Shown here piece after piece: positions 1,092 through 26,813 of a stretch of DNA of 31,243 nucleotides. Origin of the DNA: Chlamydiia bacterium. Lineage in GTDB: Bacteria > Chlamydiota > Chlamydiia > Chlamydiales > Parachlamydiaceae. Under the pieces are notes generated by a model. That model was not told the DNA's origin. It was given only the letters and a program-made list of their open reading frames with translations, and ran no database searches. Each line of letters starts with the position of its first letter. Positions within the stretch are counted from its first letter, which is position 1. A program made the position numbers and the translations under genes. The stretch spans positions 1 to 31,243 of the forward strand of contig JBBSJT010000013.1 in NCBI GenBank assembly GCA_038257035.1. The letters are read 5' to 3'.

Positions 1092-2192
1092 TTACTGTAA
1101 TCCTTTTTTTTCTTGGAGCAGGCTAAGCCCCAATTGTTCTGGCCATCCTTCGGTGGAGTTTGATAACACGACGACGCCTTTCTCATTTTTTCGATCGAAC
1201 CCAATGAAGCTACGAAAACCACCCGTGCCTCCATTATGCCATATGATATCACCATTTTCTGACTTTGAAAGAATCCATCCAAGGCCGATTGAAGTGTTGG
1301 AATCTATTGGATAAAGTCCCATATGGCATTCTTTTAAAGATGGGTTTAAGGATGATTTTAAAAGACTCATATTTGCCTCTAAAAATTTTAACAGATCCCT
1401 TACATTTGATTTAAGGGCACCTGCCGCTACAATAGCTTCTGTAAAATCCCAATAATTTACTTGTCTACCTAAATGGTGCCCTTTTGCAAAGAGACGTGGT
1501 TTTTCTTGATCTTGAAAAATTCTGGTATCATGCATTTCTAAAGGATTTAATACAGAATCTAAAAGCCATTGTTCATAAGGCTTGCAAGCTTTAAGAGATA
1601 AAATATGCCCTAATAACCCCATGCCTACATTAGAATATTCAAATGTATCACCAGGAGTTCTTGTTAACTCATAATTATTTAAAAACTCATAAAGATTTTC
1701 CAGAGTATAATCTTCAAACGGATTCAAAGGATTTTTCGGATTGAAATTTGTTGGCATGCTAGGAAGGCCTGAATGGTGTGTTGCCAAATGTGCAAGAGTA
1801 ATTTTTTCGCCATTCATTTCAGGTATTTTCACACCATGTAAATGCAGCTCGACTGGATCGTCTAATTGGACAATTCCCTTAGCTACCATCTCCATTAGGC
1901 CAAGCGTCGTAAAAACTTTTGTAATGGAGCCGACCTCATAGATTGTTTTTTCATTAACTTTTTCATCGTCTATCAATGAATTTGTTCCATAGGAATAGGT
2001 TTTGACAATTCCATGATCTATGAAACCTACAACGACTCCCGTCGCAGCTTTTTGATCGACATATTCTTGAATAAGCTCTTGTATATTCATGGTATTCTCC
2101 ATTTTATTTTCATTTTCGGCACCGGCAAAGACAGCACTAAAACCGATTAGGAAGGCACTCAATATAAATTTAAAGCGTCTGATTACGTTCAT
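1092..2192 (-). CDS. Serine hydrolase, class C beta-lactamase/AmpC-like family
   Basis: SITK (SxxK), YSN (YxN), HNG motifs; LATHHSGL; N-terminal signal peptide (AVFAG). Confidence 0.92.
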   Translation of the reverse strand: MNVIRRFKFILSAFLIGFSAVFAGAENENKMENTMNIQELIQEYVDQKAATGVVVGFIDHGIVKTYSYGTNSLIDDEKVNEKTIYEVGSITKVFTTLGLMEMVAKGIVQLDDPVELHLHGVKIPEMNGEKITLAHLATHHSGLPSMPTNFNPKNPLNPFEDYTLENLYEFLNNYELTRTPGDTFEYSNVGMGLLGHILSLKACKPYEQWLLDSVLNPLEMHDTRIFQDQEKPRLFAKGHHLGRQVNYWDFTEAIVAAGALKSNVRDLLKFLEANMSLLKSSLNPSLKECHMGLYPIDSNTSIGLGWILSKSENGDIIWHNGGTGGFRSFIGFDRKNEKGVVVLSNSTEGWPEQLGLSLLQEKKGLQ

Positions 2193-2193
2193 A

Positions 2194-2637
2194 TCATTTC
2201 TTTACTTTGGTAAATTTCATATATTTTTTGATTAAAATTTCAAGTTCTGCTTCTAAAAAAATGCAGTAGTTGTCCATTTCTTGTAAATGTTCGAATTTTT
2301 CAAGTTCATTCAGTGGAATTTCTTCAATGATGACGCGTAATTTTCTAACTTCTTTAATTTTTTCATTTAGATTCATACCCCACATATTTTTCTTTATCTG
2401 GTAAAAATCTGCACGCTTATCGGCAAGCAGCACCTTTTCTATGACACCCGTTGCTAAAAGCCTTCTTAATTCTGTACTGGCAGTACTTTTACTTATTTGC
2501 AAATTTTCTACCAACTGCCCCATGGAAACAGGTTCTTTTGCTGTCATAAAGAATCCAAACATTCGACCGTAAGTTTTACTTAAACCAATCTCATCAAAAT
2601 AGATTCCAAATTTATCCATCAATTTATCAAAGTCCAT
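2194..2637 (-). CDS. GbsR/MarR family transcriptional regulator
   Basis: GLSKTYGRMFG...LQISKSTASTELRRL winged-helix. The ATG at 2637 lies downstream of the promoter and follows GGGGGA. The stop is adjacent to the hydrolase start. Confidence 0.88.
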   Translation of the reverse strand: MDFDKLMDKFGIYFDEIGLSKTYGRMFGFFMTAKEPVSMGQLVENLQISKSTASTELRRLLATGVIEKVLLADKRADFYQIKKNMWGMNLNEKIKEVRKLRVIIEEIPLNELEKFEHLQEMDNYCIFLEAELEILIKKYMKFTKVKK

Positions 2638-2666
2638 TATCCCCCAAAGTTTTATTAGTTCGATAT

Positions 2667-2713
2667 GTTCGGTCCACACAGAACATTATATAACATTACT
2701 TTTTTACTGTCTA
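2667..2713 (-). promoter_or_regulatory. Sigma70-type promoter with overlapping palindromic operator
   Basis: Minus strand TAGACA (2713-2708)-N17-TATAAT (2690-2685), followed immediately by GTTCTGT-GTGG-ACCGAAC (2684-2667). Confidence 0.75.
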
Positions 2714-2827
2714 CAAGAATAGTACTGGTATTTTTGGAGTCTGTTTTTTTTAAAAATCAGTTTTTGTAGAAATTCATTGAAAGGTTAGAGAACAATGTCC
2801 CCTTTTATCATTTTAGTAGCTAAGAAA

Positions 2828-3619
2828 TTAAAAGGATAAACCTAATATCCCTGATTCCAAGAGCAATTGCTTGACTCTTGGAATTCTTTGATCAAGATTT
2901 ATTTTCTTATCGAGAATAAGATAGGCGAACGGATAAATATTTTGATCATTTTCAATCCAACCCACAAACCATGCATGTTCTAAAGTTTTTCCGTCTTGAG
3001 TTATACTCGAACCACTCCATCCTGTTTTCCCGTACAACCTATAACCATTTGATAATTCTTCTTTAAAAAGAATTGCTTTTGTCATTTGAGTTGAAAAAGT
3101 GGAAATCGGAAGCTTACCAAGGATCATTTTTTGAATGAAAATAACCTGCTCTTTCGGAGATATTTTTAAAGAAGAGTTTATCCAGGCAACGCTTTCGGCC
3201 CCAAGTTTTCCTAGCCCTCCGCAAATATCCTTATTTCCATAGTCCATAATATTCAAATAGCTTTGAATTTTTTCCACACCTAATTCTAAGGCAATGATTT
3301 TGGAATACCAAATACAAGAATAGCGCATCCATGATTGTGGGGTTATGGATGCTTTCCATGATTCCATATAGTCATCATACCCTTCTTTAAATTTTAGAAC
3401 CGGAAGATTTTCGTCTTTTAAAAAGCCGGCATCATACCCCATCAGGCTTAGAGCTATCTTAAAAGTCGAACATGGACTTATTCTATCATCTAGCCTTTGA
3501 CCAAATTCGACAACGACTTCATTTGTCACACCATTTATAAGAAGAAAATTCTCTTCTGCAAAAAGAGAATTACAAAAAAAAAAGCAAACGATTAATTTGA
3601 TAGACAACTGAAAATTCAT
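2828..3619 (-). CDS. blaOXA: Class D beta-lactamase (OXA-like)
   Basis: PCSTFKI (STFK), SCI (SxV position), YGN, W...SLKISP and KTG motifs; signal peptide (SLFA). Confidence 0.88.
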   Translation of the reverse strand: MNFQLSIKLIVCFFFCNSLFAEENFLLINGVTNEVVVEFGQRLDDRISPCSTFKIALSLMGYDAGFLKDENLPVLKFKEGYDDYMESWKASITPQSWMRYSCIWYSKIIALELGVEKIQSYLNIMDYGNKDICGGLGKLGAESVAWINSSLKISPKEQVIFIQKMILGKLPISTFSTQMTKAILFKEELSNGYRLYGKTGWSGSSITQDGKTLEHAWFVGWIENDQNIYPFAYLILDKKINLDQRIPRVKQLLLESGILGLSF

Positions 3620-4123: not shown

Positions 4124-4270
4124 AACCCCCCTTTATCTTATCTTAAAAGTATACACTTTCTAATTCAAAATAAAATCTTTTAAATAATTTTTCCCTAAAA
4201 GCTCGTTGGCATTCATACATTCATTTAGAGAAATTGGCATTCGGTGTATGCTGTACCAAAAGGAAATAAA

Positions 4271-5218
4271 ATGATTTACCTGACTGCTCTTACTGATTTA
4301 TTACTTTCTAAAGTTTTTTCTAATCTTGACAAGTCCAATCAAAAAAGCGCTTCATTAGTTTGTAAGATTTTCCAAAACATTATAAATAACAATGAAGCTG
4401 GGTATACCGCGCTTATTATAAGTCGTCAGGGATTTATAGACAAATTTTTCTTAAAAAAAGTCCCCGGATTAAATATAAGCTACGGCCAAATTTTTGATAT
4501 TTTCAATAAAAACGGAATAGACATTTACGTAAGTGGCGGCGCGATAAGGGACTTGCTAGGCATAAGATCTTCAAGTGTTATAGATATCGATTTTTCATTT
4601 ACCGGAAATGTTGAGAAGATCGTTGAAATTGCTAAAGAAAACTTTTGGCAATTTAGTAAAAGACCCGATTTTCCCGTGATTCAAATAGGGATACGAAAGG
4701 ATTGCTGCTTACAAGGCATCTCTGTAGATTACACTTTAAAAGCCCCAATAGAATCACTTGATTTTTGTTTAAATAATATTACCTACCACTACAATGCAAA
4801 GCAATTAATTGACAGAACAGGCAAAGGGTTTGATGCTATCTTTAAGCAAAAGTTAAATATTCCTTTAGAAGACAGGGAGAAATGGCTTGGTGGTGAAGTC
4901 TTTGGCTCGATCTACAACAAAATCTTTCGTACTTGGAAAATGCTAGGCCGTGGATATGGATTAGAGCCATCCCTACATTCCTTTTTGTATTCAAAAACTA
5001 TCAAATTTCTCCAAACTGATAGACAAGAGTTTCTAGAAAATATGATTTTCTATCTTGGAAGGGATTATGACGATTACGATAGTTATCTGATAGGATCAGG
5101 TTTACTAATGGGTAACAAGTGGAAAAATGAAGTAATAACACCTTTAGAAAATGAGATTTTATCCTCTTTTAAAAATAAGGAAGAACTTTGGGAAAGTTAC
5201 ACATTCAATAATAAATAA
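4271..5218 (+). CDS. F-box-like N-terminus fused to a class II (CCA-adding/poly(A) polymerase-like) nucleotidyltransferase head domain
   Basis: LTDLLLSKVFSNLD...SASLVCKIFQNII matches the F-box pattern. IYVSGGAIRDLLG...DIDF and DFCLN...LIDRTGKGFD match the NTase. AAGGA RBS precedes the ATG at 4271. Confidence 0.78.
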   Translation: MIYLTALTDLLLSKVFSNLDKSNQKSASLVCKIFQNIINNNEAGYTALIISRQGFIDKFFLKKVPGLNISYGQIFDIFNKNGIDIYVSGGAIRDLLGIRSSSVIDIDFSFTGNVEKIVEIAKENFWQFSKRPDFPVIQIGIRKDCCLQGISVDYTLKAPIESLDFCLNNITYHYNAKQLIDRTGKGFDAIFKQKLNIPLEDREKWLGGEVFGSIYNKIFRTWKMLGRGYGLEPSLHSFLYSKTIKFLQTDRQEFLENMIFYLGRDYDDYDSYLIGSGLLMGNKWKNEVITPLENEILSSFKNKEELWESYTFNNK

Positions 5219-5309: not shown

Positions 5310-7058
5310 ATGAAAATCAAATTTATTACCCTTGTTTTAATTACCGCTACAGTCAATCTATTTGGCGATTACCATTCATCTTCACCCTATCGATGTAAGA
5401 TGTCGGGTGATGAACTAGAAGCTGATATCATAGTTATTGGTGCAGGAGCTGCAGGATGCGTTCTGATGAGCGAGCTTTCACAAAATGGTCAATTTTCAGT
5501 TTTAGGAATAGAGGGTGGCTTAAACCTAACAACTGATCCTGAAATAGAAGCTGTAGGACTTCCCGCTTTTCTTTTAGCCGGCACAGGAAAAGCTAGGTAT
5601 TTTTGGCCGGGATGGAATCAAACCTTGGCAATGCCCGGTCTTAATGGACGTACAAGTGATTGGACTACCGGAATGCTTCTTGGTGGTGGCTCATCAATTA
5701 ATGGACTTTATTATGGTCGTGGGTCAAATGAAATGTATTCTCGTTGGGAAGGAATTTCCGGCAGCAGTAATTGGAGTCTTGCCAATATTCTTGAAACTTT
5801 TAAAAGACTTGAAAACTATCAAGGCTTGACAATTACCCCCGGAGCCCGGGGCAGCAATGGTCCTGTCAACATTCTTCAAACACCTACTATCTCAGATATT
5901 ACAGCAAACGTACTTTTACCTGCGACACAAGCAGCTTTTCCCGGAATTCCGGTTGTAGCCGATTACAATGACCCTACCGTACAAAATTGCATATGCCCTC
6001 GTTCTCAATGGTTTATCGACCCTTCAGGTACAAAACGAGTAAGCAGCGCTACGGCTTAATTAAATCAGTCGATCATGACACCTGAGGGTCAGGGTGTTAA
6101 TGGACATAAACTATTTATGCTTTTTGGTTCGGTAGGTGTGAAAATACTATTTGACAAACATGGCACTGCTAAGAAGGTAAGATACATGAAAGATGGTAAG
6201 CTTTTTGAAGCAAAAGCTAAAAAAGCTGTTGTTTTGGCAAGTGGCATTAACAGTAGTAAATTGCTACAACTTTCAGGAATTGGCCCCTCAGCAGCATTAG
6301 AAAATGCTAATATCGAACCTGTTTTCATTAATGAAAACATGGGAAAACATCTTCAAAATCATCCGCTTATTTTTATTACAATGTTAGCAGATCCTGCTCT
6401 TAGCGGTGTTCCTGCCGGGGCTCCGTATGCATTTACGATCAATAGTGTCTATTTGCCGGTAGTTGGAGGGGGTGCGAATGATCCAAGAATGCTACAAATG
6501 CTGTTCGAATTTATACCTGCAACCGCAACAACTCCAGCAATTTTAGCCGTTGGATTTGATCTTTTGAACCCGATAAGTGAAGGTAGTGTAACGATTCAAA
6601 GCGATAATACTTATCAAATTGCAGCAGCAGATGATGGCTTTTATCAAAATCCCATAGACCTTGAAAATATGAAGGGAGCCGTCTCAGTCTATATACGCGC
6701 TCTTTTAGATCAGCTAGAAATCATGTACCCTTTTCCTTCGCCTTGGTTTAGACCTATATTAAGTGATCCGATCAATTTAGTCATCCTTTCAGGTTATAAT
6801 GACGACATCGTGACCCAGTATGTTAAAAATAATAGCAATCTTTCATTGGATATTCATCATTTTGTTTCACATTGTAAAATGGCAGCTTTTGAAGCAGGTG
6901 GTGTTGTAGATGGTAATACTCGTGTTTATGGTACCAAAAACGTGTTTGTAGCAGACAACTCCATTTGCCCTGTAATACCTGATATTAACACTACAGGGCC
7001 TGCTATGATGATTGGATTGCGGACTAGCGAAATTCTTAAAAAAGTACTAAAAAAATAA
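5310..7058 (+). pseudogene. GMC family oxidoreductase (choline dehydrogenase-like) interrupted by a single in-frame TAA at 6057-6059
   Basis: GAGAAG, GGGSSING, SKLLQLSGIG, IHH...CKM, GVVD, VADNS and NT motifs. Both ORFs are in one frame, reading RVSSATA*LNQSIM where GMCs usually have SxATAYL. Confidence 0.88.
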
Positions 7059-9920: not shown

Positions 9921-10841
9921 TCACTCTTCATTTATTCCTGTCCTCTTTTTATCATTTCGATGATCGGAAATGACTTCATCAATTATATGCCAACATTTAA
10001 CTGATTCGGCATTACTTGGACTCGTTAAATCAGCTGCAGTAATTAGGGCTTTCCAGAGTGCCCAAGCACGACCTCGTGCCCATGTTTCAGAATCTAAGGA
10101 AAGTGTTTTCCTAAAAGCTTCACGGCTCTTTCCATTAAATAGCGTCCATGCAATAGCAAGATCGCAGGAAGGGTCTCCAATACTAAGCTGCCCAAAATCA
10201 ATAACACCCGAAAGTTTTCCGTCTTTTACAAGCAAATTACCTGCACTGATATCTCCATGAACCCAAACCGGTGGGTTTTTCCATGTTGTGGTAACTGCAT
10301 TTTCCCATATTTCAGTTGCAATATCGACATCAATTTTACTTTTAAGAGCTAAAATTGCATTTCTCGTCTGCATATCATAATTTGTTAAAGATCCACCACG
10401 GTAAAAACTATGTAATCCAGCTGTAGGTCCATTTTTGACATCAATATTTTGTAAAGCGATAAGAAATTGTCCAAGAGATGTGGCAAAGTCGCATAAATCA
10501 ACGATGTGTCCTGTTGCGGCAGTATCGCCTTCAAGCCATGCGTATATAGACCATTTCCAAGGATAACCATTTGAAGGTATGCCCATAGCTAAAGGGACTG
10601 GAATTTGAAGAGGTAAAAGAGGAGCAAGTTTAGGCAACCACTTCTGTTCTTTTTCAACCTGTGAAGCATACCTTAAAGCACTTGGCATACGAATGAGCAT
10701 TGAGTTGCCTAAGTGAAAGGTTTTGTTATCCCAACCACTTGAGGCTACCGCAGAAATACTCAAATCTTTCCATTCCGGAAACTGATCAGCAATTAATTTA
10801 CGTACGGTTTCAATATTTATAACTATTTTATTATCATCCAC
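9921..10841 (-). CDS. Aminoglycoside phosphotransferase (APH) family protein
   Basis: SSGWDNKTFHLG, KEQKWLP, HGDISAGN, IDFG and GDPSCDL motifs. Confidence 0.93.
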   Translation of the reverse strand: MDDNKIVINIETVRKLIADQFPEWKDLSISAVASSGWDNKTFHLGNSMLIRMPSALRYASQVEKEQKWLPKLAPLLPLQIPVPLAMGIPSNGYPWKWSIYAWLEGDTAATGHIVDLCDFATSLGQFLIALQNIDVKNGPTAGLHSFYRGGSLTNYDMQTRNAILALKSKIDVDIATEIWENAVTTTWKNPPVWVHGDISAGNLLVKDGKLSGVIDFGQLSIGDPSCDLAIAWTLFNGKSREAFRKTLSLDSETWARGRAWALWKALITAADLTSPSNAESVKCWHIIDEVISDHRNDKKRTGINEE

Positions 10842-10858
10842 CGATAAACCTTAACTAA

Positions 10859-11728
10859 TCACAAAAGATTTTCAAGAATACTGCGATTTAATTGGTATAA
10901 ACTAGCATTTTTATTTGCCCAAGTTCCACGTTTAACTGTAAAGCCTATTGTAGCAATCGCTTTATTGAGGCGCAAGAAAGGAATGATGAGATTGTAATCG
11001 GGAACTTTACGCACAGTTGCATAACCTGACAAGAAAGATGCTTTGTTGTTTGGATTAATTAACCATTCTCCATGCTCTAATGAGCAAAAATCCTCTTCTG
11101 CAAAGCTTGCACGAGCACTTGCCCAATCGATGATCCCCTGCAACTTACCTTCATGGACAATTAGATTCCCGGGTCGAAAGTCCCGGTGCACAATGCAAGG
11201 TCCATCCACAAACTTTAACAAATCAACATGTGTCTCAAAATAAAGGCGACATTTTTCTATCAAATTCTTCGGTAAGTGATCCTTACACTCCTCTAAACCC
11301 TCTTCAAACTTGGCAGTAAAATAAACTCCAGCATCCTTACTTAAATTATCCTTTAGTGGATCACCATATCCTTGCAAACGGTTAAGATGGATGATTGCAA
11401 GAGAAGACCCAAGCTGATAAGCCAAAGATTCATTAAGTTCTTTTGGTTGAAGAAGATCACCTCTTAAGCATTCCATCAAGATCGCACCATGTATACCTTC
11501 GCTTGGGTTCACAACCTCTAAAATTTTTGGCACTGGTATTTTATCTGCAAAAAATTTTAGGAAATGCACTTCTCTTAAATAATCATCAACACGATCGCAT
11601 ATTTTTAAAATAAACTCCTTGCCATCGGACTTAAGTATTTTATAGACAACAGCGACCATTGCATCTTCATGATCAATTCGTGAAAAATTAGCAGTCTGAA
11701 GATTTAGAATTTTTTGGTAAGGAGTCAT
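10859..11728 (-). CDS. Aminoglycoside phosphotransferase (APH) family protein
   Basis: FILK...RE, IPVPKI, HRDFRPGN and IIDW motifs. Confidence 0.9.
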   Translation of the reverse strand: MTPYQKILNLQTANFSRIDHEDAMVAVVYKILKSDGKEFILKICDRVDDYLREVHFLKFFADKIPVPKILEVVNPSEGIHGAILMECLRGDLLQPKELNESLAYQLGSSLAIIHLNRLQGYGDPLKDNLSKDAGVYFTAKFEEGLEECKDHLPKNLIEKCRLYFETHVDLLKFVDGPCIVHRDFRPGNLIVHEGKLQGIIDWASARASFAEEDFCSLEHGEWLINPNNKASFLSGYATVRKVPDYNLIIPFLRLNKAIATIGFTVKRGTWANKNASLYQLNRSILENLL

Positions 11729-12285
11729 TTATTCACCTCATACTTCAATTGTACTAGACCGCTAGGATAAGCCTGCGAACTCACTAAACGACATGAATTT
11801 TCTCTATTCATAACGCTAAATAATGGGATTCCTGACCCGAGAATGGTAGAAATTATCGAGATTGTAATTTCATCCACTAACCCTAATTCAATGAATTTTG
11901 AGGAAGTAATTCCTCCGTCAACCCATATGTGCCTGACATTTTCAGATTTAAGTTTCACTAGAAGATCGGGTAACTCTCCACTATACAACTCAGTTTCTTT
12001 TCTAACTTCGTTTAAAGTTTTGCTAAGAACGATGACTCTTTTTTCTTTATATGGCCATTCGTCAAAACTAGAAACAAATTGGTAGGTATTTCTCCCAAGA
12101 ATCAAAACATCAATGCTATCTATGAATTTCTTAAAACCATAATCTTCATCACCTGTATGGCCGTGTTGCAGCCAATCTAAATTGCCATCCTTACGCGCAA
12201 TATAGCCATCAATACTTGTTGCAATATAAACAGAAACTTTAGGACGTGAAGTCGATAAATTATCGTCAATTATTTTGTTATTCAT
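11725..12285 (-). CDS. Dihydrofolate reductase family / RibD C-terminal domain protein
   Basis: IATSIDGYIA, LGRNTY, WVDGG, VDEI and LGSGIPLF motifs. Confidence 0.93.
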   Translation of the reverse strand: MNNKIIDDNLSTSRPKVSVYIATSIDGYIARKDGNLDWLQHGHTGDEDYGFKKFIDSIDVLILGRNTYQFVSSFDEWPYKEKRVIVLSKTLNEVRKETELYSGELPDLLVKLKSENVRHIWVDGGITSSKFIELGLVDEITISIISTILGSGIPLFSVMNRENSCRLVSSQAYPSGLVQLKYEVNK

Positions 12286-12826
12286 CTTTTACCCATTCAT
12301 TAATTCCAATCCTATAAAGAACGTGCCTGCTTAGTTTATGTTCGTTAGAAAGCTTAGGATGGTTAAAATCATCTTTAGGATCATGATGCATTCCAATACG
12401 TTCCATAACTGCCTGTGATCTAATATTAGAAACAGAAGTAAATGAGATAATTTCCGGTAACTTTAAAACTTTAAATCCATAATCTAAAGATGCAATAGCT
12501 CCTTCTGTAGCATACCCTTTACCCCAATAGTCAAACTTAAGCCTCCACGCTACTTCAATAGCAGGTGTGAACGGGGCCGGGAAATCAATATACCTTAAGC
12601 CTATAAAACCAATAAATTTTGTTTTATCTTTCTCTGAAACTGCCCACCAGCCATACCCATGTGTCTTAAAATGCTCTTGAATAGATTCATATTCCTTAAC
12701 AGTTTCTTTAAAAGTTCTTATGGAGGGAAAATGTTCCATTACGCGTGTATCTGCATTAAGTTCTGCAAAGGTTTGAAGATCACCTTCGTGCCAAGGACGT
12801 AAAATGAGCCGGTCGGTTTTTATCAT
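12278..12826 (-). CDS. GNAT N-acetyltransferase (RimJ/RimL family)
   Basis: TDRLILRPW, FIGFIG, EVAWRL, WGKGYATE and NIRSQAVMERIGM motifs. Confidence 0.95.
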   Translation of the reverse strand: MIKTDRLILRPWHEGDLQTFAELNADTRVMEHFPSIRTFKETVKEYESIQEHFKTHGYGWWAVSEKDKTKFIGFIGLRYIDFPAPFTPAIEVAWRLKFDYWGKGYATEGAIASLDYGFKVLKLPEIISFTSVSNIRSQAVMERIGMHHDPKDDFNHPKLSNEHKLSRHVLYRIGINEWVKDE

Positions 12827-20621: not shown

Positions 20622-22568
20622 ATGAGATATTCTCGTACTTTAAGTTTATTTATTTCTCTTTCACTAAGTAACTTTTGCCTGCAGGCTGTTACTGCAGAGT
20701 CAAAAACAAACGATTTTTCAAAGCTATCATTTGTAAAAAAAGATGATTATTCAGCTTTTCCCCTTCTTGACAGAACGATTATTATTTCAGATGAGTTTTC
20801 CGAAATCAATGTTTCAGACCATAAGTCAATGAAAACAGAACCCGTAAAAACAATTCTAAATGGTGGGTTATTATCGGTTGTTTGGGAAAATCAAGAAGAA
20901 ACTTTTCTGATTGTAGATTCCTTCGAATACGATTCAAAAATGAGATCAGAACAAAACTTTGATGAAGCTCTAAAAGATAATCTCAATATGATCGGAAGTT
21001 ATTCTTGTCATCATCGAAGCTGTTTAACCGGTCCTACAGGCCCAACAGGAAACACTGGTTTAACTGGATTTCCAGGTTCAAATGGCTTCGCAGGCACCTT
21101 CGGTAGTGCAGGTATTACCGGTGCTACAGGGGCAACAGGTTTAACCGGTTTAAATGGTGCAACAGGTAGAACGGGTGCAACAGGTGCAACGGGCGCAACA
21201 GGTGCAACGGGTGTCACGGGCCTTACAGGATTTCAAGGGGCAACCGGTAATACCGGTGTCACTGGTATTTTAGTTAATGGTGTAACAGGAGAAACAGGAC
21301 CCACCGGTATTAATGGTCCGGGGGTAATCGGTCAGACGGGCCCAACGGGTGCTACAGGTTTAACTGGCGCTGATGGACCGACAGGCGCAACAGGCGCAGC
21401 AATTAATGGACTTGTAGGGCCAACGGGTCCAACGGGTACCTCAGACGCCTGGTTACTCGAAGGTAATGCAGGAACAGTACCCGGAACAAACTTTCTTGGA
21501 ACCACCGATAATAACGCACTTCTTATTGCAACTAACAATAATACAACAGCCGGAACGCGGTTTGATGTTAACGGCCAAATCGAAACATTAGGAACAGGTA
21601 GAAGTGTATTTTTTGGCGAAGGAGCTGGGCTTAATACAGTTATTAATTCGGGAGTGGATAATACATTTGTAGGGTTTAATTCGGGCACAGCGAACACAAC
21701 AGGCGACTTTAACACCGCCGTCGGCTCTCAAACACTTCAAACAAATTCTACGGGTGTAGCAAATACAGCTCTTGGAGGTCAGACGCTATTATCTAATACT
21801 AATAGCAATAATACAGCTATCGGTACTCAGTCTCTTTTAAACAACAGCACCGGATTCAATAACACCGCCGTCGGATTTCAGCCACTTATAAACAATACAA
21901 CAAGTTTCCAAAATACTGCTATCGGATACCAGGCTCTTCAAACTAATGTTACTACGGGCACTAACAATACCGTCCTTGGGTTTCGTGCGGATGTATCGGC
22001 AGATGGTCTAACTAATGCTACGGCTATAGGTTATTTTGCTATCGTCGACGCATCAAATAAAGTTCACATTGGTGGACCCAATACATCCGCCATCGAGGGG
22101 CAAGTAGCCTATTCATTTCCTTCTGATAAACGTATTAAAAAGGATGTTGCAGAAAATGTACCCGGTTTATCATTCATTACCAAACTACGCCCTGTCACAT
22201 ACCATCTTGATACGGAACAAATGGCAATCATCATGAAGATTCCGGAAGATAGAAGATTATTCGATGCAGAAACTTCGCAGGCACAAATTTTGAAAACCGG
22301 ATTTATTGCGCAAGAAGTTGAGGCCGCTTCCAATAGAATCAACTATGATTTTGATGGCATTAACAAACCACGCGATGAAAACACTTACTACAGTTTAGCT
22401 TATTCAAGTTTTGTGGCCCCCCTGGTAAAAGCAATTCAAGAACAACAAGAGATGATTAATGCTTTAAAGATTACCCGCCAACAGCAGCAAGATGCCATTA
22501 ATGCATTAATGAATAGATTGGAGCAACAGCAAGAGATAATTAATGCATTAAACAATGTTGCCGGTTAA
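20622..22568 (+). CDS. Collagen-like / beta-helix fibre protein with C-terminal peptidase S74 chaperone (paralog 1)
   Basis: Signal peptide; GXT triplets at 21030-21440; [21 protein letters not shown] repeats; SDKRIK (22122) and GFIAQEV; Q-rich coiled coil. Confidence 0.92.
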
Positions 22569-22586
22569 ATTCGGAAAAAAAGTTTA

Positions 22587-22622
22587 GAAAAGATTATGGC
22601 AGTTGGAACACCATAATTTTTC
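22587..22622 (+). terminator. Stem-loop / terminator after paralog 1
   Basis: GAAAAGATTATGG...CCATAATTTTTC. Confidence 0.55.
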
Positions 22623-22728
22623 ATTAGGCAATTAAACAGCCCTTATTTGGGGTTATAAAAAATTAAACCGAACAAATAATCAGGTCTAATTTTATAATTT
22701 GATTAGGTTGACATTAAGAAGGATGATT

Positions 22729-24678
22729 ATGCGATATTTTGATAGTTTAAGTCTATGTTCGTTTTTGTTGATTAGCGGGTTCTCTTTAAATCCAGTTTCC
22801 GGGGAATTAAAAAAAGTTGATTTTACATCTATTTCATCTTTTGAAAATGATGATTTTTCAGAATTCCCACTTTTGGACAGAACAATTATTATGTATGGGG
22901 AATCTTCAGATAAAATTGTCTATGATCCCAATAATGTAAAAAGTGAACCTATAAAAAAAGTTCTAAATAAAGGGCTTTTGTCTGTTGCCTTTGAAAACGA
23001 AGAGCAAACTTATCTGATTGTCGATTCCTATGAGTATGATTTAAACATGACGTCGAGGGATAATTTAGGCGAAGCTATTGAAAATAATCTAGACATTATA
23101 ACAAACTATTCATGCCGCCGACGGGTACAAGCACCCTGCATGACTGGCCCTACAGGACCAACAGGATCAACAGGACCAACAGGTACTGCTGGTCTGCCGG
23201 GCGTAACAGGAATAACCGGCACAACAGGTTTAAGAGGCCCAACAGGTGCTAGAGGTCCAACCGGTTTGACGGGTAATAATGGCTCTGCCGGCCTAGCCGG
23301 TATCACAGGCGTAACGGGCGTTCAAGGCGCTACAGGAACCACCGGTCTTACAGGAGCAGTGGGAGCTACAGGTCCTACAGCGATTGGGGCTGTTGGGGCA
23401 ACAGGAGGAGTTGGTCCTACGGGTATTGGAGGGTCAGGTGCGCTAGGTCCACAAGGAGCCGTAGGTGTTACTGGAGCAACCGGCTTAGTCGGTGCTACAG
23501 GCCCTACAGGCATTGCGACTAATGGTGCAACAGGTCCGACCGGGGCCAACTCTAGCTTAAACGCATGGTCGCTCTTCGGTAACGCAGGAACAAATCCGGG
23601 ACCAAACTTTGTCGGAACAACCGATAATGTTGCATTTCTTATTGCAACCAATAATAATACAACAGCAGGAACGCGTTTTACTGTTAACGGGTTAATTGAG
23701 CCCTTAAACACAGGAAGAAGTGTATTTTTAGGAGAGGGTGCTGGAATTTCCGATGTCATTAATTCCGGAGTCGATAATACATTTATAGGTTACCAATCAG
23801 GTACAGCCAACACAACAGGCGACTTTAACACCGCTGTCGGTTCACAATCACTTGCCACAAACACAACCGCAGTAGCAAATACTGCTGTAGGGTATGAAGC
23901 ACTATTCCTTAATAATGCTGATGGTAATACAGCAGTCGGTTACCAAGCTCTTAGAAACAACACTAGCGGCACTTTTAACACCGCCGCAGGATATCAGGCA
24001 CTTTTTAATAACGACTCAGGAGAACAAAATACGGCTTGCGGTGTACTGGCACTTTTTGATAATACAACGGGTAGCTTTAATACTGGCTTAGGGTATTCAG
24101 CGAATGTTTCATCTGGGAGCCTTGTGAATGCTACAGCTTTAGGTGCTATTGCAATTGTAAATGCAAGCAATAAAGTTCGTATAGGAAACACTTTAGTGAC
24201 CGTTGTCGAAGGTCAAGTCGCCTACACTTTCCCTTCAGATGGACGCATTAAAAAAGATGTAAGAAATAATGTACCGGGTCTATCTTTTATTATGAAATTA
24301 CGTCCGGTTACCTACCATCTCGATATGGATAAAGTGGCGGAATTGATGCAAACCCCCGAGAATCAACGATCAACAGTTGACGAAAGTTTTCAGGCTCAAA
24401 TATTGAAAACAGGTTTTATCGCCCAAGAAGTTGAAATTGCGGCCAATGAAATCAACTATGAGTTTGATGGAGTTATTAAGCCGGAAAGTGAATCTGGATA
24501 CTATGGATTATCTTACTCAAGTTTTGTGGTTCCCTTGGTTAAGGCTGTTCAAGAGCAACAAGAGATGCTTAACTCATTAAATGAGAGCGAACAACAACAA
24601 CTGGAGACCGTTAATTCACTGATAAACAGCGCACAAAAACTGCAATTGATAGTTAATGAATTAAAATTCGCTGGTTAA
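22729..24678 (+). CDS. Collagen-like / beta-helix fibre protein with S74 chaperone (paralog 2)
   Basis: AAGAAGGA RBS, ATG 22729 (MRYF); GXT triplets at 23146-23550; NTAVGYQAL repeats; SDGRIK (24235) and GFIAQEV. Confidence 0.92.
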
Positions 24679-24694
24679 TACTACAAACAGCTAA

Positions 24695-24743
24695 GTTCTA
24701 AGAAAAATTAGGTTGCTGAGACTTCATAATTTTTCTTTAGAAC
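24695..24743 (+). terminator. Stem-loop / terminator after paralog 2
   Basis: GTTCTA-AGAAAAATTA...TAATTTTTCT-TTAGAAC; homologous to the 22587 hairpin. Confidence 0.55.
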
Positions 24744-24845
24744 CAAAAAAACAGGCCCTCCGTGCGGGTTCTAAAAAAATTAAGCCAAAGAAACAATGAT
24801 GTCTAAATTTAAAAGTTAAATAAGTTGACATTAAGAAGGATGATT

Positions 24846-26813
24846 ATGCGATATTTTGATAGTTTAAGTTTATGTTCTTTTATAATAATTGGTGGTGTCT
24901 CTTTAAATCCACTTTTGGGAGAATCCAAAAAAAATGATGTTTCCATTATATCATCCCTTGAACGAAATGATTTTTCAAATCTTCCTTTGATGGACAGAAC
25001 CATCATTACTCTTGATGAATTTATCGATCACAACATTTCAGACCCAAAAAAAACCAAACAGGAACCAATTAAAACCCTTCTGAATAAAGGCCTTCTGTCA
25101 GTAGTTTTTGAGGATGAAGAACAAACTTATCTGATTGTCGATTCTTACGAATATGATTTAAATATACTTTGCGAATACGACAAGATTGAGGTATTAAAGA
25201 ATAATCTCGACATTATCGGTCATAACTCCTATCAACATCTATCTCAAAGGATGGGCGCAACCGGAGCCACTGGCGCAACGGGTCCGATGGGCCCTCAAGG
25301 CGCTCTTGGTTCAACAGGTGCTACAGGCGCTACTGGTGCTATAGGTCCTACAGGTCGTACTGGTGCTACGGGTGCAAGAGGGCCAACAGGTGCGACCGGA
25401 ATTGATGGACAAACAGGTGCAACAGGAATTACAGGTTTGACAGGCTTAAGAGGTGCAACGGGTGTTACTGGTGCTACAGGACAAACAGGAGCTTCCGTTA
25501 CCGGGGCTACGGGCCCAAGGGGTCCAACAGGAGCACAAGGTGGTAGTGGCATCGGTGTAACCGGTGTAACAGGTATTACAGGAGCTACAGGAATAACAGG
25601 AGCTACGGGTGCCCAGGGAGCTACTGCAATAGGAACTATTGGGCCAACAGGTCCAACAGGAAGCTCTGATAACTGGTTGACTACAGGAAACACCGGAACA
25701 AGCCCTGGGACAAACTTTATAGGGACTACAGATGCCAATGCGTTCCTTATAGCAACCAATAACAATACAACAGAGGGAACTCGTTTTACTTTAAAAGGAG
25801 CGATTGAACCCTTAGGATTTAACCAATCTGCCTTCTTGGGCGAAAGAGCTGGATTTAATGCTACCGGTTTAGGAAATAATACCCTTATTGGCTACGAATC
25901 GGGTTTGGGGATATCATCAACCTTTAACAATAACAACACAAGTGTCGGTTCACAGAGTCTCTCTTTGGGTCTATTTAACGAAAATGTTGTTTCTGTAGGG
26001 CACCTATCATTGTACAGGCATGGAAATAACGCATCCACCGGTGTTGGTTATCAGGCGGGTTTTAACATGATTAATCCATCTGGATTTTCTTCATCAACAA
26101 ACGTTGCTTTTGGATATCAAACTTTTGGTTTCAATCAATTTGTCAATAATAGCATTGCTTTTGGTTACCGTACACTTTCAAACATTAATGCCACTCTTGG
26201 AGCTAATGGAGAGGTTGACGGATTCGGTGCTACCGCAGATACTTCCGGGAATAACATTAGATATTGTAGCGCAATTGGTTATGGTGCTATTACCAATGCG
26301 ACCGGTAAAATTCGCATAGGGAATACTGCTGTTACTGTTATTGAAGGTCAAGTTGCCTATACAGTATCATCTGATGGTCGTTTTAAGACAGATATTGCAG
26401 AAACCGTTCCGGGCTTATCTTTTATATTAAAGTTGAAACCTGTGACTTATCATCTTGATATGGATCAAATGGCAGCCCTTATGCAAACACCCGACTCTTT
26501 AAGGATGCCTGAGGCAGAAAGCTTGCACGGTCAAATTTTGAAAACAGGTTTTATAGCGCAGGATGTTGAGCTTGCAGCAAATGAAATCAACTATGATTTT
26601 GATGGGATAAATAAGCCGCATGATGAAACAGGTTATTATACCTTAGCCTATGATAGCTTTGTAACTCCTTTAGTAAAAGCAGTCCAGGAACAGCAGGAGA
26701 CGATAGATCAGCTAAGCAAACAGACAGAGCAAAGACAAGAGATTATCAATATGTTAACAGATATGTTGCAACAGCAGCAATTAACGATTAACGCGTTAAA
26801 TAATTCTCTTTAA
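24846..26813 (+). CDS. Collagen-like / beta-helix fibre protein with S74 chaperone (paralog 3)
   Basis: Same RBS and start as paralog 2; GXT triplets at 25254-25667; diverged beta-helix; SDGRFK (26370) and GFIAQDV. Confidence 0.92.

Follow-up and report, generated by a model that had tools for sequence, protein, structure and literature searches.

A chlamydial gene joining a divergent F-box to a class II nucleotidyltransferase head with rewritten specificity motifs, a candidate host-directed effector

F-box effectors are a means by which several intracellular bacteria take over the protein-degradation machinery of their hosts. In nearly all F-box effectors known to us, the partner of the F-box is a repeat domain whose part is simply to bind the target. 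AnkB of Legionella, seen together with human Skp1 in PDB 5k35, carries a small F-box at its N-terminus and ankyrin repeats, a binder rather than an enzyme fold, at its C-terminus. Here we describe a gene from a Chlamydiota metagenome-assembled genome (MAG) whose 315-residue product (P0001, the F-box-NTase protein) likewise starts with a small predicted F-box but continues into a domain with the fold of an RNA 3'-end-processing enzyme, a class II nucleotidyltransferase (NTase), in which the residues that set specificity have been rewritten. The gene lies on a contig of 31,243 nucleotides (JBBSJT010000013.1, contig C13), analyzed over its whole length and referred to below as the window; the assembly (GCA_038257035.1) amounts to 2.37 Mb in 210 contigs and is 95.8% complete.

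F-box effectors of amoeba-associated chlamydiae are already known, and one of their families joins the F-box to a different putative NTase. Massive expansions of F-box and BTB proteins are described for Parachlamydiaceae, where representatives proved to be type III substrates in a surrogate assay (excerpts of Domman et al., 2014, PMC4209131). The NEX2 family of Neochlamydia, described in the same excerpts, combines an F-box with DUF294, a putative NTase, and with TPR repeats, some members possessing an OTU domain as well. Like NEX2 as portrayed there, the F-box-NTase protein couples a chlamydial F-box at its N-terminus to a putative nucleotidyltransferase, and its genome likewise shows a massive expansion of F-box genes. 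It differs in that its NTase belongs to PolyA_pol and not to DUF294; unlike NEX2 and the expanded chlamydial F-box families in general, it carries no C-terminal LRR or TPR repeats recognizable by Pfam and is encoded by a single-copy gene instead of by many paralogues.

A second likeness is found in giant viruses. Passages of a preprint (10.1101/2023.12.02.569716) describe 23 Pandoravirus 'cluster 7' proteins consisting of BTB-BACK and a class II NTase. In this NTase the third carboxylate is missing and a Gln nearby is conserved, DFD is found in place of RRD, and there is no EDxxR motif. On that description, the Pandoravirus proteins and the F-box-NTase protein have in common a cullin-ligase adaptor and a divergent class II NTase devoid of the third carboxylate, RRD and EDxxR. 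Fold matches in BFVD (E 1.4e-7 to 3.6e-4) include further giant-virus proteins with the library names 'F-box domain-containing' (Klosneuvirus, 331 aa; Cedratvirus, 322 aa), 'BTB' (Hyperionvirus, Fadolivirus, Faunusvirus), 'Zinc finger RING-type' (Fadolivirus) and 'Ankyrin repeat' (three proteins). The F-box, BTB and RING look-alikes are viral and much more distant from the chlamydial protein (E 2e-6 to 2e-4 by fold, 10-21% identity), to which they are likened by fold and library name.

Class II CCA- and A-adding enzymes and bacterial poly(A) polymerase (PDB 3h39, 4wby/1vfg, 1miv and 3aql) share motif A and the head fold with the F-box-NTase protein. In contrast to them, however, it has Gln in place of the third carboxylate, SLD in place of RRD, no EDxxR and a loop of four residues, and it is 315 rather than about 400 residues long, lacks the body and tail domains, possesses an extra N-terminal F-box and falls below the cut-offs of both NCBIfam models. 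No report of a fusion between an F-box and a PolyA_pol-type class II NTase was found in the literature searched. The terms 'PolyA_pol', 'PF01743' and 'polymerase head' are absent from one supplement file of PMC4209131, and an earlier listing in file 1 of that article is possible.

The gene and its F-box-rich genome

The longest reading frame at the locus (4244-5218, plus strand) opens at a GTG codon. The ATG at 4271 is the likelier start, since the sequence AAGGA lies six bases upstream of it and the N-termini of homologous proteins coincide with it. The GC content of the gene is the same as that of its neighbours, and a scan for promoters and terminators around it yielded no more sites than were found in shuffled sequence. 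Two soil-metagenome DNA runs contain the stretch or part of it; no RNA run is listed.

The genome is crowded with F-boxes. Pfam matches number 54 at E <= 0.01, of which 39 are above the cut-off, and a hidden Markov model (HMM) of the paralogues finds 88 of 7144 six-frame open reading frames (ORFs) at E < 1e-3. Paralogues mostly carry the F-box at residues 10-45 of proteins of 230-450 aa; one of the 29 scanned has a second Pfam domain above cut-off (ankyrin), and 27 of the 29 show no other match even at E <= 0.01. This crowding matches the expansion described in the excerpts of Domman et al., 2014 (PMC4209131). One FHIPEP export-gate gene is present in the genome (752 bits), and a Chlam_OMP6 match falls below its cut-off (31.4 vs 34.1 bits). 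The initial annotation of the window, made from its letters and reading frames, had called the protein a candidate host-directed F-box effector. The F-box part of that claim held up by HMM and by fold, while the support for the host-directed part is contextual, namely the 54 to 88 F-box ORFs of the genome and the surrogate secretion described in the consulted excerpts of PMC4209131.

Two canonical class II genes are found elsewhere in the genome (409 and 423 aa, 118 and 117 bits), with matches at C37:8928-9287 and C67:3997-4359. One of the encoded enzymes has RRD, EDRLR and FEVSTFR motifs. The other is PcnB-like and bears the sequence LIGRRFRLAHI, given as a poly(A) polymerase signature in the available text of PMC2910056. 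Poly(A) polymerase of the PcnB type and a canonical CCA-adding enzyme are both retained in this genome. Because these two canonical enzymes are encoded elsewhere, the F-box-NTase gene is not a housekeeping gene. Its product also scores far below the cut-offs of the NCBIfam models for CCA-adding enzyme (TIGR02692, 11.3 vs 438.8 bits) and PcnB (TIGR01942, 10.3 vs 305.65 bits) and has no body or tail, in agreement with the initial annotation, which had held that this is not a housekeeping CCA enzyme.

The F-box and nucleotidyltransferase domains

Four lines of evidence, each not strong alone, agree in identifying the predicted N-terminal domain as an F-box. First, the F-box model PF00646 matches residues 7-41 at 23.0 bits (cut-off 20.5, E 7e-5) in a Pfam scan of the protein, and the same segment at 26.1 bits in the genome scan; the F-box-like model PF12937 stays below its cut-off (17.8 vs 24.3 bits). 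Second, an HMM trained on the 53 remaining F-box regions of the genome, with the protein itself left out, matches its ORF at E 1.8e-4. The ORF ranks 85th among the 88 with E < 1e-3 in the paralogue HMM search, which marks its F-box as a divergent member. Third, hhalign places the F-boxes of close relatives and those of the paralogues in register (residues 6-41 to 9-44, E 0.0019), at a low probability of 14%. Fourth, an AlphaFold2 (AF2) model of residues 1-62 reaches a pLDDT of 82.9 overall and of 90-95 across residues 11-40, and among the Foldseek matches listed for it 38 of 43 are Skp1, SCF (Skp1-Cul1-F-box) or F-box complexes, with a root-mean-square deviation (rmsd) of about 1 Å over 32-41 residues. 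AnkB (5k35_A) ranks seventh among these fold matches and is a weak one (E 0.47, rmsd 7.9 over 58 columns). In addition, the hydrophobic core residues L7, L12, V15, F16, L19 and V30 and the C31-K32 pair match the paralogue consensus, and the N-terminal motif is conserved among the six close relatives that carry it (44-65% identity). From sequence and model, binding of the N-terminus to Skp1 is plausible. The account that the initial annotation gave of the reading frame and the two domains was reproduced, F-box and PolyA_pol both scoring above the curated Pfam cut-offs.

The second domain is recognized as a PolyA_pol head from residue 85 onward (PF01743, 28.4 bits vs a cut-off of 23, E 2.3e-6). 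An AF2 model computed on a 111-sequence alignment of the family (pLDDT 92.7, pTM 0.83) has class II A- and CCA-adding enzymes as its top Foldseek matches (4wby, E 3.1e-10). Searched against the PDB, the family profile finds 4wby at E 2.3e-16 and 19 more class II sequences at E <= 0.01, whereas a single-sequence phmmer search was marginal (E 0.21), the match emerging only with the profile. Among PHROGs, only tRNA nucleotidyltransferase families are matched, weakly (E 3e-4). FAM46/TENT5 proteins (PDB 6w36, 7cqz, 6jyj and 8exe) have no F-box and resemble the model in fold, and no FAM46 is among the 20 PDB sequences that the profile matches at E <= 0.01. Given these profile and fold matches to solved class II enzymes, the domain is, as judged by sequence, a member of the PolyA_pol head superfamily.

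The register of the catalytic motifs was derived from the profile alignment to solved CCA- and A-adding enzymes and from the columns of the 111-sequence family alignment. The motifs lie where the initial annotation had placed them, with GGAIRD at residues 89-94, DID at 105-107, SLD in place of RRD, and EDxxR absent. G89, G90, R93 and D107 are invariant in all 111 sequences and D105 is present in 109. In motif B, D/E164 and N168 are retained across the family while both arginines are lost. The stretch from the E-strand to motif B is shortened to four residues and the flexible-loop region is missing. RRD serves ribose recognition and EDxxR acts as the base template (available text of PMC2910056 and PMC11784652), and the Asp and Arg of EDxxR are reported to tolerate no replacement in CCA repair (same portion of PMC11784652). 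The nine members of the clade to which the protein belongs all keep the residues of the nucleotide and metal site (G89, G90, R93, D94, D105, D107, N168, R220 and K223).

According to the AF2 model and VIA, the class II part of the protein consists of head and neck only, the tRNA-holding body and tail domains being absent. VIA structural alignments cover model residues 45-305 in all cases and 42-305 at their widest. Net charge was considered as a hint of RNA binding and dropped, the head and neck of the canonical enzymes of this genome being equally neutral or acidic.

Table 1. Coordinates of the F-box-NTase gene and of its sequence features in the window
Feature	Position	Strand	Remarks
Whole ORF, F-box-NTase protein P0001	4271..5218	+	315 aa plus stop
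Shine-Dalgarno-like AAGGA	4260..4264	+	6 nt before ATG 4271; read directly from sequence
F-box domain (predicted)	4289..4393	+	Residues 7-41; three helices (9-17, 21-28, 32-43); without canonical Pro and Trp
Helical linker	4403..4453	+	Residues 45-61; leads into the conserved VPGL of the family (64-67); both AF2 models and VPGL columns
Class II NTase head, Pol beta-type fold	4454..4870	+	Residues ~62-200; Pfam, family profile, Foldseek, VIA
Motif A, GGAIRD (89-94) and DID (105-107), two catalytic carboxylates	4535..4591	+	Family columns
Gln148 at third metal-binding carboxylate position	4712..4714	+	Aligned to Glu of the E-x-T-T-F-R strand of solved CCA enzymes
Motif B remnant SLDFCLN (162-168) for RRDFTIN	4754..4774	+	Family columns
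Motif D remnant SIYNKIFRTWK (213-223), EDxxR absent	4907..4939	+	SIYNK (213-217) at the EDxxR site; R220 and K223 conserved
All-helical 'neck'-like domain	4871..5206	+	Residues 201-312; AF2 secondary structure; protein ends here

Relatives and gene history

The close relatives of the F-box-NTase protein are seven proteins of 46-65% identity, all from metagenome assemblies. No further clade members were found in a one-genome-per-species scan of 185,579 species or in JGI metagenome contigs. The 72 other genomes of the same family, including both genomes of the same genus (86% and 96% complete), contain no orthologue. They yield only weak matches (E 1.4e-4 to 9.4e-4), and the open frames concerned, 378-436 aa long, are taken to be the class II enzymes of those genomes. 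In one of the two genus members (G053), the neighbouring GMC oxidoreductase gene is kept, no F-box-NTase gene is present in the 1.5 kb upstream of it, and the DUF952 neighbour lies on another contig. The F-box-NTase gene is a lineage-specific accessory gene, in keeping with turnover by birth and death.

A profile search of 1.84 billion representative sequences found 317 proteins at E <= 0.001, 106 of them at E <= 1e-10 and 18 at E <= 1e-30. To our knowledge, no member of this NTase family of 317 representatives has been characterized. In the group that follows in similarity (E 6e-63 to 1e-32, about 270-340 aa), the F-box is replaced by N-termini that are hydrophobic and, as judged by eye, signal-peptide-like. 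Three genes of this type could be located, in Chlamydiota, Waddliaceae and Chlamydiae MAGs. Of 400 sampled genomes of the phylum, eight have a match at E <= 1e-8, that of the window included; the remaining seven come from two further families (4 of 6 and 3 of 5 genomes), and their matches are confined to profile positions 41-313. All ten chlamydial locus ORFs (eight distinct) begin with a hydrophobic N-terminus. Conserved neighbours of these chlamydial sister genes were not found, with PolX-like, AI-2E transporter, SnoaL and GDPD genes varying between loci.

The phylogeny of the domain was computed with FastTree, a quick method, on 117 rows and 257 retained columns. The rows comprise 111 of 156 proteins (200-460 aa; 150 of the 156 from the profile search), four locus ORFs and two housekeeping enzymes as outgroup. 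The initial annotation had proposed such a tree, and in it the nearest relatives are the chlamydial signal-peptide-type proteins: a nine-member F-box clade (support 95) is sister to an 18-member signal-peptide clade (99), the two being joined at 98. The F-box is present in six of the nine clade members, while P0005 to P0007 (261-276 aa) start later and, lying on contigs of 1.2-2.7 kb, may have been cut short. Between the sister clades, the signal-peptide-like N-terminus and the F-box have apparently been exchanged in a natural swap of domains, by which one catalytic module would be redirected to a different compartment.

Among 147 of the 150 listed representatives, a scan that left out the query, clade member P0007 and a protein of 7704 aa (P0034), the other domains recognized are GT8 (1), WWE (1), TPR (1) and EF-hand (2), and no F-box or BTB was found outside the clade. 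P0034 is a metagenomic protein with a proline-rich repeat N-terminus and four stretches that match the NTase profile (E 9.7e-22). A distant NTase subgroup (alignment A5) possesses a conserved N-terminal extension of about 100 aa without a Pfam match; a cryptic F-box in this subgroup was considered and rejected, as hhalign gave only a C-terminal match of 23 columns (E 0.0044, probability 8%). The subgroup has one relative (47% identity) on a large viral contig, an IMG/VR contig of 107,850 bp (L054, match at 2001-2837). As leads only, the nearest Atlas clusters are assigned to Rotifera and Nucleocytoviricota. In precomputed annotations, also to be read as leads, 12-13% of the three nearest clusters carry PF26128, the family of the phage protein Gad2 (anti-Gabija, a predicted NTase), which is likewise annotated on clade member P0003.

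Downstream of the F-box-NTase gene, the GMC oxidoreductase gene (5310-7058, plus strand) is interrupted at 6057-6059 by an in-frame TAA, which leaves ORFs of 249 and 327 aa. The same gene is intact in G053 as one ORF of 585 aa, and the split copy is either a pseudogene or an assembly error. Elsewhere in the window, three tandem ORFs of 648-662 aa (20622-26813, plus strand) each combine collagen triple-helix repeats with Peptidase_S74 (endosialidase chaperone) and have a GC content of 0.46-0.49 vs 0.33-0.39 around them. A beta-lactamase-family ORF (PF00144, 193 bits), a MarR-type regulator and a 263-aa ORF with a penicillin-binding transpeptidase fold follow one another at 1092-3619 (minus strand). 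Two APH-family phosphotransferases, a RibD_C reductase and a GNAT acetyltransferase occupy 9921-12826, all on the minus strand.

Possible functions of the fusion and their meaning

We tentatively favour, at somewhat short of an even chance, the reading that the protein is a host-directed F-box effector of an environmental, amoeba-type chlamydia and that its NTase domain is a re-specified and still active nucleoside monophosphate (NMP) transferase aimed at a ubiquitin ligase by the F-box. After export, most plausibly by type III secretion, the three-helix F-box would dock to host Skp1 and hence to the Cul1-based SCF ubiquitin ligase. The C-terminal module would act as a minimal class II nucleotidyltransferase made of head and neck, without the body and tail that hold tRNA. 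It would keep the site of motif A for nucleoside triphosphate (NTP) and Mg, while the residues by which CCA-adding enzymes and poly(A) polymerases choose ribose and base would be replaced. This re-specified payload may then transfer NMP to a non-tRNA acceptor met at or near the ligase, so that the F-box would serve as the aiming device and the NTase as the working part. Transfer to a non-tRNA acceptor is proposed from the kept NTP-Mg site, the replaced specificity residues and the loss of body and tail. What the analysis shows directly is how the domains are arranged and folded, which motifs are kept or lost, the genomic background and the relation to the sister clade; the steps of export, Skp1/SCF docking and NTase action at the ligase are what we infer, and AMPylation or UMPylation of a protein, as named by the initial annotation, would be purely inferential.

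An active transferase is suggested by three features. The nucleotide site is invariant in all nine clade members. The NTase stays constant while the N-terminus varies, as expected of a payload, being signal-peptide-like, GT8, WWE, TPR or EF-hand among relatives and F-box, BTB, RING or ankyrin by name in BFVD. Finally, the Gln need not abolish class II catalysis, since class II enzymes require just the two motif A carboxylates according to the passages of 10.1101/2023.12.02.569716 that cite Hou et al., 2005.

Several points weigh against an SCF-docked, active enzyme. Classical F-box proteins use their C-terminal domain to bind a substrate and not as an enzyme. At the position of the third carboxylate, eight of the nine members of the F-box clade have Gln, whereas 98 of the 102 other relatives have Glu or Asp. 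P0010 of the signal-peptide clade, for example, retains Glu. The clade-specific Gln coincides with the F-box and, to judge from the alignment, could have weakened catalysis, so that the domain may be an impaired enzyme or a module for binding. The F-box itself departs from its kin in two hallmarks that the initial annotation had overlooked. Of the 'LP' pair, Leu is found in all six F-box-bearing clade members and Pro in none (T/N/N/N/G/D), as opposed to 22 of 30 paralogues, and the helix-3 Trp is Phe in all six while 19 of 30 paralogues have Trp. In other F-box proteins, the Leu-Pro pair matters for Skp1 binding. The probability assigned by hhalign is low, all Foldseek E-values listed for the 62-residue model are 0.32 or higher, and its fold is partly inherited because the underlying alignment included the F-box paralogues of the genome. 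The SCF-tethered nucleotidylating enzyme of the initial annotation is a hypothesis at this stage: motif A is invariant, yet the third carboxylate has become Gln specifically in the F-box clade.

A substrate receptor is a possible alternative, though a doubtful one. Host SCF docking would proceed as in the active-transferase reading, and the NTase-like domain would be a crippled enzyme turned receptor, holding a host target that bears a nucleotide or RNA end, perhaps the substrate of the ancestral enzyme, for ubiquitination. The layout of F-box and C-terminal binder is that of a canonical F-box protein, the exchange of Glu for Gln is specific to the F-box clade, the position being non-acidic in only 4 of 102 sequences elsewhere, and the Pandoravirus cluster 7 proteins, as far as the preprint passages describe them, join BTB, a Cul3 adaptor, to a class II NTase that also has no third carboxylate and a Gln nearby. 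The two aspartates of motif A and the remainder of the nucleotide site, however, are invariant in nine of nine members, which a pure protein binder would not require. The sufficiency of two carboxylates in work cited in the consulted part of 10.1101/2023.12.02.569716 likewise argues against a crippled enzyme, and the ankyrin, TPR and EF-hand partners of relatives fit an NTase payload better than a receptor.

It is distinctly improbable that the N-terminus does not bind Skp1 at all and is a degenerate F-box-like bundle put to other use, as a chaperone or secretion signal or for a bacterial partner, with the NTase acting alone in the bacterium or the inclusion. The missing Pro and Trp, the rank of 85th out of 88 and the hhalign value of 14% would suit such a bundle, and the signal-peptide-like N-terminus of the sister clade implies that the ancestral enzyme may work outside the host cytosol. 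Against this stand a Pfam score above the gathering cut-off, core positions (L7 to V30 and C31-K32) that fit the consensus, an N-terminal motif conserved in six clade members and the 38 Skp1, SCF or F-box entries among the 43 listed fold matches. An ordinary CCA-adding enzyme or poly(A) polymerase with an odd N-terminus is scarcely credible and is refuted so far as sequence can refute it, for although the Pfam head match and the CCA- and A-adding enzymes as best solved relatives would agree with it, two canonical enzymes are present already, both NCBIfam scores are far too low, the protein has neither RRD nor EDxxR, no flexible-loop region and no body or tail, and the gene is absent from the 72 other family genomes, both of the same genus included.

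The swap of signal peptide and F-box, the clade-specific Gln and the viral look-alikes make this protein a good entry point to its NTase family. It is conceivable, if unlikely, that a divergent, minimal class II NTase has been wired repeatedly and independently to modules of the ubiquitin system in microbes living inside amoebae and other protists, namely to an F-box in the chlamydial clade, to F-box, BTB and RING in giant viruses and to WWE in an uncharacterized relative. If so, this would be an unrecognized device of host manipulation, in which either a module recognizing nucleotides or RNA ends steers a cullin-RING ligase or an NMP transferase parked at the ligase modifies the ubiquitin machinery or its substrates, and the change from Glu to Gln at the third carboxylate, seen here and nearby in the Pandoravirus BTB proteins, would be a signature of the conversion. 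With D105, D107 and Q148, the active site is open to test. An active NTase would make the protein a ligase-tethered modifying enzyme of a new kind, and an inactive one would make it an SCF substrate receptor of a new kind.

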